32,000 nt of DNA from Candidatus Nanoarchaeia archaeon (lineage in GTDB: Archaea; Nanobdellota; Nanobdellia; CSSed11-243R1), in contig JAQTNH010000001.1 in NCBI GenBank assembly GCA_028713895.1, positions 157,050 through 189,049 of the forward strand, in the 5' to 3' direction. The notes under the pieces are model-generated. The model did no database searches. It saw nothing but the letters and a program-made list of their open reading frames with translations, and was not told the DNA's origin. How positions within the stretch are numbered: position 1 is the stretch's first letter; each line of letters starts with the position of its first letter. The translations under genes and the position numbers were made by a program. This document shows, piece by piece, positions 3,809 to 6,480 of the stretch.

Positions 3809-3949
3809 ATGAAGAAAAAGATAAGCATCAGCGTCGGGGAAGAGACTTTACAGCTTATAGATAAAGCCCTTTCAAACGGCGCTTTCAGGAATACTTCTCA
3901 TGTTTTCGAACACGCAGTAAACAAGATGCTCAGCGAGAGTGAGAAATAA
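3809..3949 (+). CDS. ribbon-helix-helix (CopG/Arc-like) DNA-binding protein, 46 aa
   Basis: MKKKISISVGEETLQLIDKAL..NTSHVFEHAVNKML has a beta-strand/helix/helix pattern. TATA-like gacttaaaaggg lies about 26 nt upstream of ATG 3809, so the gene looks leaderless; the GTG at 3743 in the ORF track is less likely. The stop overlaps the next start (TAATG at 3947-3951). Confidence 0.7.
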   Translation: MKKKISISVGEETLQLIDKALSNGAFRNTSHVFEHAVNKMLSESEK

Positions 3950-6480
3950 TGGAAGACATAACCCTGGAAAAACTTGTAAATGATTCTTATAGCAAAACTT
4001 CTTTAATAAACTCAATATATAAAGAGAATGCTGTACTATACAGCTCCCACACTCTTTTGAATGATGTTATAGACATTCACATAAAAAGAGATGTAAACAC
4101 TATTGGAACAAAGAACGAAGTGCTTTGCCGTGCAACAAACTGCTCCATCGAAGGAAATGTAGGAGGCGTTGCAGGGGATAAACGTGGCATTAATGTCTTG
4201 GTTAAATCAGAAAATTCGCACATCGAAGGGGATGTAAGCGCAGGAAATGTGCTTAAAGACGCTAATGATTCTTATGTCGAAGGGAATGTAAACAGCGGGC
4301 AATGTGTGCTTCATAAAACTAAAAATTCGCATATTAAAGGAAATGTAACAAGCAGAGGATCTGTGCTGTATGAATCTATCAGTTCTTATATCAAAGGAGA
4401 TGTAAGCAGCGAGGGAGATATACTAGACAGAGTTAAGAATTGTTATATTGAAGGAAACATAAAAAGCGGACCAACTGTACTCTGGAAAGCGGAAGGCTCT
4501 CATGTTAAAGGAAATGTAAACAGCGGTAATTGCGTACTGACTGATGCCAATGATTCTTATATTGAAGGAGACGTAAACAGCGGAATAGATGTGCTTTTGA
4601 ATGCCAAGAAATCTCATATCCGAGGAAATGTAACAAGCCAAGGAACTTTGCTTAATGAATCCGATGATTCTTACGTTGAAGGAGATGTGAACAACAAAAG
4701 AGATGTGCTCCACAAAGCTAAAAAGTCTCATATTAAAGGTAATGTAAAAAGCAATGGAGACATACTACAATATGCTTGTAATTCGTTTATCCAAGGAAAT
4801 GTTGAAAGCAACAAATTTATACTCTATGACTCCAAAAATTCTTATATTGACGGCAATGTTAAAAGCGAAACATCTTTGCTAAACAGCTGTAAGAATTGTT
4901 ATGTTGTTGGGGAAGAGATTACTGCACCAAATTTAGGATGGGATTCAAAAGGAGGGCTGGTTGCTGCAAAGAAGATTGATTGCTCTGAGGTAACGGGGGG
5001 TAGATTAACTGTTTTAACACAAAGCAACATAAAAGACGCGGTTAAGTTCAATGGAGACTGGAAAGAGCTTTCAGATTATCTTTCAGGCGAACTGAAAAAG
5101 GAGAACTTCGGAGAGCTAGACGCACTGAGACTGTTCAAGATAGAGAAAAAAGAGACTAATCTTGAAGGATTCAAAAGCGAATTATCTAAACTTAACAAGA
5201 AGTATGCCTCAGTAAAGTCTGCATTCGAAGAATATGAAGATTTAAAAGATGTCCTTGGATTAGACGATATCTGGTGGGGCAGCAATGTGTCCAAAAAGAA
5301 CTATCTTACCAATATGGAAGCAGAAATCAAAACCAAGCTTAAGGACAAGTTCAGCATAACTGACAAAACAATTGAATTGATAAAGAACACTCCACAAAGA
5401 AAAGACCTAATAACTGAGTTGGAGAAAGAAAGCGATGACCACCACTTTGAGGGACGAGTAGGAAACTTTAATACATTTTATCAGGTAACAGGAAAGTCAA
5501 TTGATGATTTCATTCAGAGATACAGCAACCACAAGGCTTCGGACTTCAAGAGGACTTACAAGCTAAAACTAAAAACAGCAGCCTCAGACCAGAGCATTGG
5601 AAAAACAAATGAAACGCTCTACAAACAGGGGCTCGAGCTGATTGAGCATATACACAGCAACGGTGTTGGGCTTGAGATGAATGACGACCGTGATGTAATG
5701 TGGTATGTACAAGCAATCAAGAATGAAGGCGCCAGGATTGGAAAACTTAAACAGGAAGGCAAAAGCATCAAAGACGCCATTAAAAAAAGGAAAAAAATGA
5801 ATTCCGCTCTTAATGCGTTGAAAATCATGAAAGCTAATGGGCTAATTCTAGAGTGCGGTACAGACATTGATGGAGTAAAGGAATGCTTGAGCCAGCTGAG
5901 CCAGCATTATCTTGGCGGAAAGCACAAGCAGATGGCAGAGAACATCTCAAAGCAGCTTGTTGTCAAGGAAAATGACCTGAGCAGCAATGTTCTTCACGCA
6001 GAGCTCTGGAACAAAGACATTTCAAACATTCCAACTTATGCAGAATTCAAATGCTGCGGGTTCTTGGGTTATGGAAACGGCAGTATTTTCGGATATATGG
6101 CCAGCAATGCTATTGAACTGATGAGATTTGACATCGGAGACAAGTCTGCAATGGCAATAATGGCTGAAACAGTAGACTCCAAAGGAAAGAAAGTGCTTGT
6201 CGTAGACTCAGTCGAGTCATCCTCGCATATGCTTGGCAGGGAAGAGGTTGCAAATGCGATTGCAAAAGCAATAGAGAGCTATGCACGCAAAGAAGGATTT
6301 GCAGAAGTGATTTATTCGTACGCTGCAGGGAACAACGGGCCACAGGAATTCATTTGGGCGCTCACAGGGCACGAGAGCGGTTCAAAAGAAGGGCTGAGGC
6401 TCGCTGACCCGTTAAAGGTCTACCTTGAGGCACATCTACGCAGTTGCGTCAGAGGGAAAATGAAGAAACTGGGCGGATAA
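3949..6480 (+). CDS. 843-aa protein: N-terminal 19-residue-repeat beta-solenoid, central K/E-rich coiled coil, unassigned C-terminal alpha/beta domain
   Basis: Long uninterrupted ORF translationally coupled to the RHH gene. Residues ~64-322 are repeats xS[HY][IV]xG[ND]VxSxxx[VIL]L. The protein ends ..RGKMKKLGG. Confidence 0.88.
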   Translation: MEDITLEKLVNDSYSKTSLINSIYKENAVLYSSHTLLNDVIDIHIKRDVNTIGTKNEVLCRATNCSIEGNVGGVAGDKRGINVLVKSENSHIEGDVSAGNVLKDANDSYVEGNVNSGQCVLHKTKNSHIKGNVTSRGSVLYESISSYIKGDVSSEGDILDRVKNCYIEGNIKSGPTVLWKAEGSHVKGNVNSGNCVLTDANDSYIEGDVNSGIDVLLNAKKSHIRGNVTSQGTLLNESDDSYVEGDVNNKRDVLHKAKKSHIKGNVKSNGDILQYACNSFIQGNVESNKFILYDSKNSYIDGNVKSETSLLNSCKNCYVVGEEITAPNLGWDSKGGLVAAKKIDCSEVTGGRLTVLTQSNIKDAVKFNGDWKELSDYLSGELKKENFGELDALRLFKIEKKETNLEGFKSELSKLNKKYASVKSAFEEYEDLKDVLGLDDIWWGSNVSKKNYLTNMEAEIKTKLKDKFSITDKTIELIKNTPQRKDLITELEKESDDHHFEGRVGNFNTFYQVTGKSIDDFIQRYSNHKASDFKRTYKLKLKTAASDQSIGKTNETLYKQGLELIEHIHSNGVGLEMNDDRDVMWYVQAIKNEGARIGKLKQEGKSIKDAIKKRKKMNSALNALKIMKANGLILECGTDIDGVKECLSQLSQHYLGGKHKQMAENISKQLVVKENDLSSNVLHAELWNKDISNIPTYAEFKCCGFLGYGNGSIFGYMASNAIELMRFDIGDKSAMAIMAETVDSKGKKVLVVDSVESSSHMLGREEVANAIAKAIESYARKEGFAEVIYSYAAGNNGPQEFIWALTGHESGSKEGLRLADPLKVYLEAHLRSCVRGKMKKLGG
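4138..4914 (+). repeat. in-frame 57-bp (19-codon) tandem repeats, about 13-14 units with a 114-bp alternating super-repeat
   Basis: Repeat starts at protein residues 91, 110, 129, 148, 167, 186, 205, 224, 243, 262, 281, 300 and 319 are exactly 19 aa apart. Units alternate between ..NSH-IKGNV and ..DSY-VEGDV types. Confidence 0.9.

Follow-up and report, generated by a model that had tools for sequence, protein, structure and literature searches.

A two-gene locus in a nanoarchaeon pairs a predicted ribbon-helix-helix protein with a beta-solenoid protein ending in a divergent GNAT-fold domain

The window analysed here, a 32,000-nt stretch of DNA from a Candidatus Nanoarchaeia archaeon, contains two overlapping genes that, on balance, probably constitute an operon for an autorepressing ribbon-helix-helix (RHH) protein and a divergent enzyme of the GNAT fold that is joined to a scaffold and may be connected with translation. 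The host is a small symbiotic-type archaeon of the DPANN (Nanoarchaeia), in which the pair would be expressed as one operon: the product of the first gene, as a dimer or a dimer of dimers, would bind a conserved palindrome that lies past the TATA box and ahead of its own start codon, leading to autorepression of a leaderless bicistronic mRNA, and the second gene would be translated by coupling at overlapping stop and start codons (TAATG; ATGA in orthologues). The second product is predicted to be a soluble, cytoplasmic protein of three parts, namely a three-sided beta-helix of ~15 turns that would provide a rigid rod for interaction or oligomerisation, a conserved cap with a helical region, and a very divergent GNAT-fold domain; this domain and the helical region are the parts conserved throughout the family. 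The two genes are as follows:

3809..3949, + strand: RHH-like ORF, 46 aa (MKKKISISV...SESEK), a predicted RHH-type DNA-binding protein of minimal Arc/CopG size
3949..6480, + strand: large protein gene, an ATG ORF of 843 aa, multidomain (NCBI PHC66_02850, hypothetical protein, Candidatus Nanoarchaeia archaeon)

In the ORF list, the RHH-like reading from 3809 is enclosed in a longer GTG ORF (3743-3949). Its stop codon TAA (3947-3949) has one base in common with the ATG at 3949 (the junction reads ...GAGAAATAATGGAAGAC), and the ORF coordinates thus confirm the TAATG overlap pointed out in an earlier, sequence-only reading of this DNA. The pair recurs in four lineages (the window, L001, L012 and L013-15), always with overlapping stop and start codons, the overlap being ATGA instead of TAATG in the orthologous pairs; a purine-rich, SD-like stretch precedes the start of the second gene. 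The RHH-like orthologues of the four lineages share 54-85% identity, and an 85%-identical homologue (P0065) is named an Arc/MetJ-type RHH regulator by JGI. The protein shares with the minimal RHH repressors of the Arc/CopG/MetJ type a length of ~45 aa, a beta-alpha-alpha pattern (KKISISV...G.FRN.SH...) and the position of its gene, first in the operon and adjoining a promoter-overlapping palindrome. Unlike the established repressors of this type, its profile matches are all sub-threshold and its DNA binding is predicted: ParD TIGR02606 is matched at E 0.011 (15.7 bits, cutoff 46.2), and Pfam RHH_1 matches the L001 orthologue below threshold (E 0.03) and not the window protein. BLASTP against an approximate CopG sequence gave no match.

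Two elements lie immediately upstream of the RHH-like gene:

3779..3786, + strand: TATA-box-like element TTAAAAGG, ~27 nt upstream of the RHH-like start codon
3787..3804, + strand: candidate RHH operator, imperfect palindrome GTATGAC-TTTTT-GCTACC, downstream of the TATA box and upstream of the ATG

The TATA-like element is aligned across the orthologous loci L001, L012 and L013 (TTTAAATA / TTAAAAGG / ATATAAAG), and the usual archaeal spacing between TATA box and start codon suggests that it functions as the promoter; since it lies only ~27 nt from the RHH-like start codon, the transcript would be leaderless or near-leaderless. The palindrome conforms to the family motif GTAKKAMT-N3-TRCTACY, a pattern built from the very sequences in which it was then counted, which occurs once in the 32-kb window (0 expected) and once, at the corresponding position, in each RHH-bearing locus; the 13 loci that lack RHH do not contain it. 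The L001 version is a near-perfect palindrome (AGTAGTA-N5-TACTACT); that of the window is weak and was not reported by an inverted-repeat finder. The RHH protein would presumably bind at this element.

The large protein is divided into three regions:

4084..4983, + strand: beta-solenoid, residues ~46-345, ~15 turns of 19 residues, each formed by three short strands (AF2)
4984..5856, + strand: solenoid cap, GDWxEL module and K/E-rich alpha-helical region (family alignment, local HMM, AF2)
5857..6477, + strand: divergent GNAT-fold domain, 207 aa (AF2 and Foldseek)

The protein is predicted to be soluble, as neither a signal peptide nor a TM segment was found (maximum 19-residue Kyte-Doolittle mean 0.75). 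No Pfam, NCBIfam, PHROG or PADLOC model covers its whole architecture, which agrees with the earlier remark that the solenoid fusion is of a kind not recognised.

Over residues 59-325, self-identity at a shift of 19 is 0.315, against a mean of 0.062 and a maximum of 0.118 at other shifts, and 2000 shuffles gave a shift-19 identity of 0.076 +/- 0.016 (maximum 0.133), which places the observed value ~15 sd above. Specifically, 12 repeat units stand in exact register in residues 97-324 (4237-4920), preceded by 2 degenerate units, with the consensus S-x-x-x-[VIL]-L-x-x-x-x-x-[SC]-[YHF]-[IV]-x-G-[ND]-V-x. Of the claims made about this region by the sequence-only reading, the exact 19-residue period therefore stands over residues ~59-324, and the regular beta-solenoid is recovered in an AF2 model with pLDDT 90-97 and a repeating DSSP pattern, built from 5 sequences only. 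Conversely, the two-unit (38-aa) super-repeat finds no counterpart in the statistics, odd and even unit spacings giving a mean identity of 0.40 and 0.40; the H/Y position alone tends to alternate (9/12 transitions, a hand count from unit listings), an alternation that is missing in P0002, a 52%-identical orthologue. TRF detected no tandem repeat at the DNA level, and the 57-nt units average 60% identity; the repeat, visible in the protein alone, is therefore old. The repeat copy number differs among homologues. Bactofilin, which had been named as the nearest family, is indeed the sole Pfam family matched by the 843-aa protein (PF04519, 25.9 bits, E 1.2e-5), although the gathering cutoff of 27.9 is not reached and no single stretch of the protein passes it alone; among 51 family members, 5 match PF04519 at E<=1e-3 (best 1.3e-9), and P0004 scores exactly 27.9 bits. 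By these profile scores, the solenoid appears to be related to the bactofilin repeat, with a homology that is below the Pfam cutoff for the window protein.

The solenoid is closed at its C-terminal end by a cap that reads KGGLVAAKKI...LTVLTQ. The region that it opens contains family-conserved motifs, such as LYxxGLxLI (family alignment and local HMM); some family members have its first ~130 residues in duplicate, and its last ~170 are retained even in members of the HEAT type. A coiled coil of ~300 aa had been proposed here, and the AF2 model does not support it, the helices being 4-28 residues long and none of rod length, with the limit that confidence is low in residues 419-549 (pLDDT <50, against 70-85 in 550-670).

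The C-terminal 207 aa were modelled by AF2 from 35 sequences with pLDDT 93.7 and pTM 0.88, and the order of the elements, b1-a1-a2-b2-b3-b4-a3-b5-a4-b6-b7, is exactly that of the GNAT superfamily. In a Foldseek search against PDB, the best 50 of 465 matches are all GNAT-fold proteins, with 4lua first (E 5e-4), probabilities of 0.77-1.0, modest TM-scores (0.35-0.57) and weak E-values (5e-4 to 0.07); the faint GNAT-like pattern read from the letters is thus upheld as a GNAT fold. The predicted topology is that of superfamily members such as 4lua from S. aureus, RimI (5isv), Naa50 (3tfy) and FeeM (2g0b), and as in these, beta4 ends with an acidic residue and alpha4 is preceded by an Asn. In contrast to them, the domain begins with two additional helices, carries a conserved Cys-Cys pair near alpha1, and shows no detectable sequence similarity: no Pfam family matches residues 637-843, the family profile of the domain matches no PDB sequence, and hhalign of this profile with a canonical GNAT alignment gives a probability of 0.3%. 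Motif A, Q/R-x-x-G-x-G/A, is the CoA pyrophosphate-binding loop of the GNAT superfamily. It is missing from the beta4-alpha3 loop, which reads SSSHMLGRE here and has the family consensus S-x-x-h-x-f-x-r, with no conserved Gly. The conserved residues are W687, K689, C702-C703, F705, S754, E756, Y778, N795, F801 and L826-E827; E756, at the end of beta4, is invariant in the family, C703, F705, S754, Y778, N795 and F801 show a conservation of 90% or more, and F801 replaces the usual alpha4 Tyr of GNATs. We take E756 to lie near the position of the general base of Gcn5/PCAF-type GNATs. The domain is a previously undescribed, highly divergent and unannotated family of its own. It would most likely be an acyl-(CoA)-dependent transferase, relying on the invariant E756 together with the conserved Cys-Cys, Ser and Asn.

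The C-terminal module and the preceding helical region define a rare family: of 1.84 billion proteins, 57 representatives match at E<=1e-3, and 38 still do so at E<=1e-10. Those that can be placed taxonomically are DPANN archaea, and no viral relatives were found. The N-termini of the family are interchangeable, consisting of a beta-helix, HEAT-like repeats or other helices, which suggests that the N-terminal part is a targeting or scaffolding module and that catalysis or ligand binding resides in the C-terminal domain. In a survey of the linkage to RHH, proposed in the sequence-only reading, the linkage is kept in close relatives, the sub-clade of the window, and it is absent from all nine RHH-less lineages with usable upstream DNA. 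In the relative L008, some of the flanking small ORFs look by eye like PIN/VapC- and RelE-type toxin-antitoxin genes. A canonical, RimI-like GNAT is fused to the family module in P0043, P0053 and P0057, and at the 3' end of the P0013 gene (L017) an overlapping gene codes for a GNAT of the same subfamily (38% identity, E 2e-26), which connects the module with acyl-transfer chemistry; most archaeal family members lack a canonical GNAT partner nearby.

Two genes precede the pair in the window:

1385..2932, + strand: 16S rRNA gene (Rfam match), with the RHH/solenoid pair just downstream on the same strand
3176..3691, + strand: canonical GNAT acetyltransferase gene, 171 aa (Pfam Acetyltransf_1, E 7e-12)

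The pair is located just downstream of the 16S gene in three lineages (the window, L012 and L013/L014; Rfam), and the 16S genes of L012 and L013/L014 are only 75-83% identical to that of the window, which argues for vertical inheritance of the pair rather than mobility. Between organisms at this 16S distance, the RHH-like proteins are 81-85% identical. The canonical GNAT gene ends 117 nt upstream of the RHH-like gene and stands outside the conserved pair: its product has no homologue in any related locus, matches RimI weakly and below the cutoff, and differs in subfamily from the GNAT that is fused to the family module elsewhere.

The arrangement of the pair, as the sequence-only reading noted, recalls the type II GNAT/RHH toxin-antitoxin modules of the TacAT, AtaRT and KacAT kind, in which a GNAT-fold protein is neutralised by an RHH antitoxin that also autoregulates its operon; on this reading, the large protein would be an acetyltransferase toxin that blocks translation and has an extra scaffold. 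As in these modules, a small RHH gene comes first and overlaps the gene of a GNAT-fold protein, with a likely (predicted) autoregulation through a promoter palindrome; AtaT structures (6gtq, 6ajm) are among the Foldseek matches of the C-terminal domain (E 0.026-0.04), the family is rare and patchy, some small ORFs around L008 were read as toxin-antitoxin-like, and translation-related neighbourhoods would suit an aminoacyl-tRNA target. The analogy is weakened by an RHH that lacks a toxin-binding tail and by a GNAT fold that lacks the CoA P-loop. KacA-type antitoxins have an extra C-terminal region of ~35-40 residues that wraps the toxin (KacA aa 52-88; PMC6698736), and the partners of GNAT toxins are DUF1778 antitoxins (PMC9177977), a type defined here by an N-terminal RHH and a C-terminal toxin-binding region in ~88-95 aa. 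The RHH-like protein falls outside this definition, with no DUF1778 match even at E<=10, and having 46 aa in total it would consist of the DNA-binding fold only, too short for a TacA/AtaR-type antitoxin. GNAT toxins are single-domain, canonical GNATs of roughly 160-175 aa that bind acetyl-CoA, whereas the partner here is multidomain, five times that size, and has neither the CoA motif nor sequence similarity to GNATs. Moreover, the linkage is confined to one sub-clade and syntenic with 16S, several of the RHH-less lineages carry the gene inside housekeeping gene clusters, PADLOC gave zero matches for either protein, and the lack of viral relatives points the same way. A toxin-antitoxin pair is, on this evidence, quite unlikely.

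Bactofilins polymerise independently of nucleotides into non-polar filaments and serve as scaffolds for enzymes. The large protein could likewise be a cytoskeletal or scaffold polymer, whose beta-helix stacks end to end into a filament that displays or localises the C-terminal domain, in which case the enzyme or adaptor would localise itself. A filament carrying an effector is possible, and as an account of the whole protein it seems doubtful. It is favoured by the Bactofilin profile matches, by the three-faced helix with three strands per ~18-19-residue turn, its small residues and G-[ND]-V-type turns, and by the long and domain-fused relatives on record, i.e., 13-winding bactofilin-like proteins of the BacEF group, one of them archaeal, and halofilin (HalB) variants with extra domains (PMC11459167). 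Unlike bactofilins, the protein has ~15 windings, a conserved cap over the C-terminal end of the helix and ~500 further residues, comprising the helical region and the GNAT-fold domain, which makes symmetric end-to-end stacking doubtful; by inspection, it has neither disordered tails nor a membrane-targeting N-terminus, its PF04519 score is sub-threshold, and the 50 best Foldseek matches of the full model include no bactofilin. That HEAT-like repeats stand in for the helix in relatives agrees better with a role in binding or scaffolding than with a polymer that must form. Alternatively, the C-terminal domain could be a non-catalytic pseudo-GNAT with a small ligand (e.g., acyl-CoA) or another protein as its binding partner; the large protein as a whole would then serve as a regulatory adaptor that works with a separate canonical GNAT. 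The missing P-loop motif and the Phe at position 801 speak for it, as do the fused or overlapping canonical GNATs of relatives and the canonical GNAT gene upstream in the window; in tandem GNAT proteins, one half is often inactive. The full model has malonyl-CoA decarboxylase (MCD, 2ygw) as its best Foldseek match (E 9e-3), and the regulatory acetyl-CoA-binding, GNAT-like C-terminal domain of M. tuberculosis ICL2 (6edz/6ee1) recurs among the best matches in both searches; both are GNAT folds with helical domains before or around them and are not acetyltransferases. The superposition on MCD and ICL2 is poor (TM 0.1-0.2, full model), with no sequence similarity and no sign that their catalytic residues are shared. 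Given the modest to weak Foldseek scores, the domain could be a non-catalytic, ICL2-like ligand-binding one. Nevertheless, the invariant Glu and the near-invariant Cys, Ser and Asn look catalytic, a canonical GNAT is lacking near most archaeal members, and that of the window is outside the partner subfamily, so that a pseudo-GNAT adaptor is fairly unlikely.

For an operon of an autorepressing RHH and a scaffolded GNAT-fold enzyme, the substrate may come from the translation apparatus (tRNA, aminoacyl-tRNA, a ribosomal protein or rRNA). In 8 of the 13 independent contexts of family members, the immediate upstream neighbour is translation-related (16S rRNA, rpL31e, rpS8e, MetRS, CysRS, Cbf5, TYW1 or GatD), an excess with a binomial P of ~0.006 against a background of 25%, which is a rough hand estimate from the same contigs. 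The bias was measured on small DPANN contigs rich in translation genes and may be an effect of genome compaction. Between the 16S and RHH genes, the gap is 258 nt in L012, whereas that of L013 contains two ORFs, one of the LAGLIDADG type and one of 113 aa.

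The RHH gene, a 46-aa ribbon-helix-helix-type ORF (window 3809-3949, plus strand), is read from 3809 as MKKKISISVGEETLQLIDKALSNGAFRNTSHVFEHAVNKMLSESEK and ends in TAATG, the TAA stop sharing one base with the ATG of the 843-aa solenoid gene (3949-6480, plus strand), as the sequence-only reading had proposed. The window belongs to a DPANN archaeon, and the 843-aa protein is identical to the NCBI entry 'hypothetical protein PHC66_02850 [Candidatus Nanoarchaeia archaeon]', encoded on a 956-kb contig. The positions of the 16S and 23S rRNA genes, which lie on the same strand, place this pair within an 11.6-kb protein-coding stretch separating both rRNA genes, with about ten plus-strand ORFs plus tRNA-Ala. 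The RNA genes found with Rfam and the seven inter-rRNA ORFs without a significant match in Pfam, NCBIfam, PHROGs and PADLOC are the following:

1385-2932, plus strand, archaeal 16S rRNA
6483-7019, plus strand, ORF without significant match
7265-9097, plus strand, ORF without significant match
9100-9726, plus strand, ORF without significant match
9800-11446, plus strand, ORF without significant match
11450-11953, plus strand, ORF without significant match
about 12056-12128, plus strand, tRNA-Ala
12331-12876, plus strand, ORF without significant match
13044-14399, plus strand, ORF without significant match
14591-17553, plus strand, 23S rRNA
22260-22599, plus strand, RNase P RNA

The window's other inter-rRNA ORFs are all absent from the 15 related loci compared, and the upstream GNAT gene (3176-3691; Pfam Acetyltransf_1, 7e-12) is not kept beside the pair in relatives; the downstream ORFs and this GNAT gene were therefore rejected as members of a conserved operon. 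PADLOC and PHROGs searches of ten neighbouring ORFs returned nothing relevant. The ORF at 6483-7019 (178 aa) begins 3 nt past the stop of the 843-aa gene, is missing from the related loci and has weak matches only (PADLOC CARF2--CARF, E 0.002; Pfam BH1974-like, E 0.009). The product of 7265-9097 (610 aa), for which no family match was obtained, carries near its C-terminus the hydrophobic stretch ITGGLQISAEIAGIAAATCAF followed by a basic tail, features that would suit a tail-anchored or surface protein.

The pair is directly downstream of 16S, on the same strand, also in two other deeply divergent lineages, one represented by L012 (1-169) and one by L013 (1-920) and L014. The distance from the 16S 3' end to the RHH gene is 258 nt in L012, about 1.4 kb in L013 and L014 and 877 nt in the window, the intervening space being occupied by the GNAT gene in the window and by a LAGLIDADG-type ORF and a 113-aa ORF in L013 and L014. 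The LAGLIDADG-type ORF follows right after the 16S 3' end (L013 956-1657) and is present in L014 too. Over the comparable parts, the 16S genes of these loci are 75-83% identical to that of the window, against 81-85% for the RHH proteins and about 51-52% for the solenoid N-termini; judged from these identities, the order 16S, RHH gene, solenoid gene is old and looks vertically inherited. The locus L001 does not share the arrangement.

The RHH protein gives sub-threshold profile matches (ParD TIGR02606, E 0.011, for the window; RHH_1, E 0.03, for the L001 orthologue), and JGI annotates a homologue of 85% identity as an Arc/MetJ-type RHH regulator. Its basic N-terminus, ISISV strand, two helices and length of about 46 aa fit a minimal RHH protein. 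A search against PDB sequences found nothing meaningful, and BLASTP against a CopG sequence gave no alignment, a comparison that is uninformative for 45-aa proteins. The expected co-occurrence of the two genes holds in four lineages (the window, L001 at 54%, L012 at 85% and L013-15 at 81% RHH identity) and fails at the other family loci compared. Specifically, the RHH stop overlaps the start of a 19-residue-repeat solenoid gene in all four lineages (ATGA or TAATG), and an RHH HMM found no match at the other family loci. L004, L007 and L008 lack an RHH homologue, and the start there is not abutted by any other ORF with a minimum length of 40-60 aa; at L010, L016, L017 and L018 and on the contig of member P0008, gene calling places no small gene immediately upstream.

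Moreover, in all four lineages the RHH start is preceded by a TATA-like box and then by the motif GTAKKAMT-N3-TRCTACY, an imperfect palindrome that is near-perfect in L001 (AGTAGTA-N5-TACTACT). The 32-kb window contains the motif once (3787-3804), five bases ahead of the ATG; each RHH locus likewise has it once, and the 13 loci without RHH do not have it; as the pattern was derived from these same sequences, its evidential value lies in its uniqueness and position only. The TATA box stands about 27 nt from the ATG, a spacing that, set against standard archaeal promoter geometry, suggests a leaderless transcript. A scan with bacterial promoter and terminator models, which are not applicable to an archaeon, returned nothing on the plus strand. 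The intergenic region at L001 7060-7114, beside a divergent AAA_14/DUF4143 ATPase gene and some 400 nt ahead of the RHH gene, holds a direct repeat of 23 nt and an inverted repeat of 24 nt (AATATTGCTTATTATAATGAGCA ...).

The 19-residue period of the large protein is firmly established (identity at shift 19 of 0.315, whereas 2000 shuffles gave 0.076 +/- 0.016 and shifts other than multiples of 19 did not exceed 0.118). Of the 13-14 uninterrupted units that had been counted, 12 stand in perfect register (residues 97-324) and the two preceding ones are degenerate. The supposed 38-residue super-repeat did not survive, odd- and even-spaced units being equally similar (0.40 vs 0.40); the H/Y position is the sole one with an alternating tendency, and the alternation is missing in the orthologue P0002. 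At the DNA level, TRF detected no tandem repeat, with the 57-nt units sharing about 60% identity, so the array is old, without recent expansion. AF2, run on a 5-sequence alignment, models residues ~46-345 as the predicted beta-solenoid with about 15 windings (pLDDT 90-97), in which DSSP assigns three recurring short strands to each 19 residues. Bactofilin, named as the nearest family, is indeed the sole Pfam match, yet its score of 25.9 bits falls short of the 27.9 cutoff; among family members, 5 of 51 have Bactofilin matches at E<=1e-3 (best 1.3e-9), while a Bflower_3 Pfam match of P0002 is regarded as a repeat-composition artefact. Canonical bactofilins have six windings, a BacEF-like group that includes one archaeal protein has 13, and halofilin B variants have up to 10 plus extra domains (PMC11459167). 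Given these published variants, a long, domain-fused bactofilin-like helix is unusual but has precedent, and the present protein, with ~15 windings, adds a further such case to the archaeal bactofilin-like beta-helices.

Directly C-terminal to the solenoid are a conserved cap (KGGLVAAKKI...LTVLTQ) and a 'GDWxEL' module. The sub-module 'cap + GDWxEL + LFxI', single in the window protein (residues ~330-460), is found in two or three tandem copies in the very acidic, possibly halophilic members P0019, P0027, P0028, P0031, P0034, P0035 and P0039. The region beyond is helical and K/E-rich, but with helices of at most 28 residues it is no demonstrable coiled-coil rod, contrary to the ~300-aa coiled coil first proposed; AF2 confidence is low at 419-549 and moderate at 550-670. 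No signal peptide or transmembrane segment was found in the 843-aa protein (maximum KD19 0.75).

The last ~207 residues, modelled by AF2 from a 35-sequence alignment (pLDDT 93.7, pTM 0.88), are predicted to have the topology b1-a1-a2-b2-b3-b4-a3-b5-a4-b6-b7 with two helices in front. The best 50 Foldseek matches in the PDB are all GNAT-fold proteins (TM-scores 0.35-0.57), including 4lua (E 5e-4), FeeM, RimI, Naa50, the GNAT-like domain of M. tuberculosis ICL2 and AtaT, and the best match of the full-length model is human malonyl-CoA decarboxylase, which combines a helical domain with a GNAT fold. The faint GNAT-like pattern noticed at the outset is thus borne out at the level of predicted fold but not of sequence: the domain has no match in Pfam or NCBIfam, its profile found nothing meaningful among PDB sequences, and hhalign against a canonical GNAT alignment gave a probability of 0.3%. 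The domain accordingly constitutes a new, very divergent family with a predicted GNAT fold. The Q/RxxGxG/A motif is absent from the beta4-alpha3 loop (SSSHMLGRE). Across the family, the beta4 strand ends in an invariant Glu, E756; C703, F705, S754, Y778, N795 and F801 are conserved at >=90% and C702, W687 and K689 at >80%. E756, C702/C703, S754 and N795 are clear candidate catalytic residues for testing.

An exhaustive HMMER search of 1.84 billion sequences with residues 330-843 retrieved 57 cluster representatives at E<=1e-3, 38 of them at E<=1e-10, sharing a core made of the last ~170 residues of the helical region and the GNAT-fold domain. The N-termini vary, comprising 19-residue-repeat beta-helices of differing copy number, another beta-repeat type, HEAT-like repeats (Pfam HEAT_2 or Adaptin_N, each in single members) and plain helices. 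Pattern-based scans with a narrower alignment found a close relative in one of 185,579 species-representative genomes (a Candidatus Aenigmatarchaeota MAG), relatives at five metagenome loci and none in the viral contigs scanned; a word-index search with the C-terminal profile returned one match and was uninformative, since it missed known members. In three distant members that look bacterial by sequence (P0043, P0053, P0057), a canonical RimI-like GNAT of the pattern WxxIKxxI..IE..F...RQS... is fused after the core, twice in the 3319-aa P0043. The same subfamily (38% identity, E 2e-26) is encoded at L017 6679-7113, overlapping the 3' end of the gene for the archaeal member P0013; fusion and adjacency together form a 'Rosetta-stone'-type link between core and GNAT. 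The window's upstream GNAT was rejected as this partner (E 0.11). DPANN archaea have tiny genomes and most of their lineage-specific proteins are unexplained. No Pfam, NCBIfam, PHROGs or PADLOC model covers the core, and a large 'hypothetical protein' now has a recognisable architecture of rod, helical region and GNAT-fold core.

The immediate upstream neighbour of the gene is translation-related in 8 of 13 independent contexts, L012 counted, the other seven being those of RHH-less members:

P0008, between rpL31e and eIF6
P0009, directly after MetRS
P0013, directly after CysRS
P0014, after Cbf5
P0017, after a TYW1-type radical-SAM enzyme, with a CCA-adding enzyme and rpS9/L13 near
P0022, after rpS8e
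P0033, divergent from GatD/GatE

Against a background of ~25% translation-related genes on the same contigs, estimated by hand from gene lists, the binomial P is ~0.006; since translation genes are abundant in the compact DPANN genomes, the enrichment is suggestive only. These neighbourhoods (aminoacyl-tRNA synthetases, GatDE, tRNA-modification enzymes, ribosomal proteins, 16S) and the RimI-like GNAT together point to a possible translation-linked modification activity, in archaea thought to have pared-down translation-modification functions.

The best-supported reading of the pair is an autoregulated, probably leaderless and translationally coupled two-gene operon, in which a minimal RHH repressor would repress its own promoter and the solenoid gene, encoding a soluble multidomain protein, would be translated by coupling. 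The N-terminal repeat domain, which is exchangeable and in this case a bactofilin-like rod, would act as a scaffold or targeting device and the helical and GNAT-fold core as the working part, in some lineages together with the canonical RimI-like GNAT. The core is most probably an enzyme of the acyl-transfer type whose active site would be unconventional, and its activity is possibly tied to the translation apparatus. A non-catalytic pseudo-GNAT adaptor and a bactofilin-like polymer built on the solenoid are both live alternatives to this reading. The toxin-antitoxin pair suggested by analogy, with an RHH antitoxin and a GNAT-fold toxin, has the gene order in its favour, but several points weaken it: KacA-type antitoxins depend on residues ~52-88 for wrapping the toxin (PMC6698736) and the RHH protein has only 46 aa, it lacks a DUF1778 signal (PMC9177977), the 843-aa partner is of the wrong size and shows no relationship by sequence with GNAT toxins, RHH is absent from the other family loci compared, and the synteny with 16S looks vertical. 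Automatic annotation as a toxin-antitoxin pair is therefore to be avoided where a small RHH gene precedes one for a GNAT-fold protein.

Extending the operon reading, the core could represent a novel enzyme family, confined largely to DPANN archaea, that modifies a translation component (tRNA, aminoacyl-tRNA, rRNA or ribosomal protein) through an unconventional Glu/Cys-based active site without the CoA P-loop, is delivered by interchangeable scaffolds (bactofilin-like rod or HEAT repeats) and, in one Nanoarchaeia clade, is hard-wired into the 16S-23S spacer under a highly conserved mini-RHH repressor; taken jointly, these elements make an improbable whole. If true, solenoid-gene dosage would be coupled to ribosome production.

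At L003 41-1129, a 47-aa ORF and a gene for a 314-aa protein precede the gene for the family member P0004. The 314-aa protein, whose gene abuts the P0004 start, consists of ~15-residue basic repeats (EVKAKKKEY...) and has no Pfam match. The 47-aa ORF before it is likewise without a Pfam match, so that its AbrB-like look found no support.
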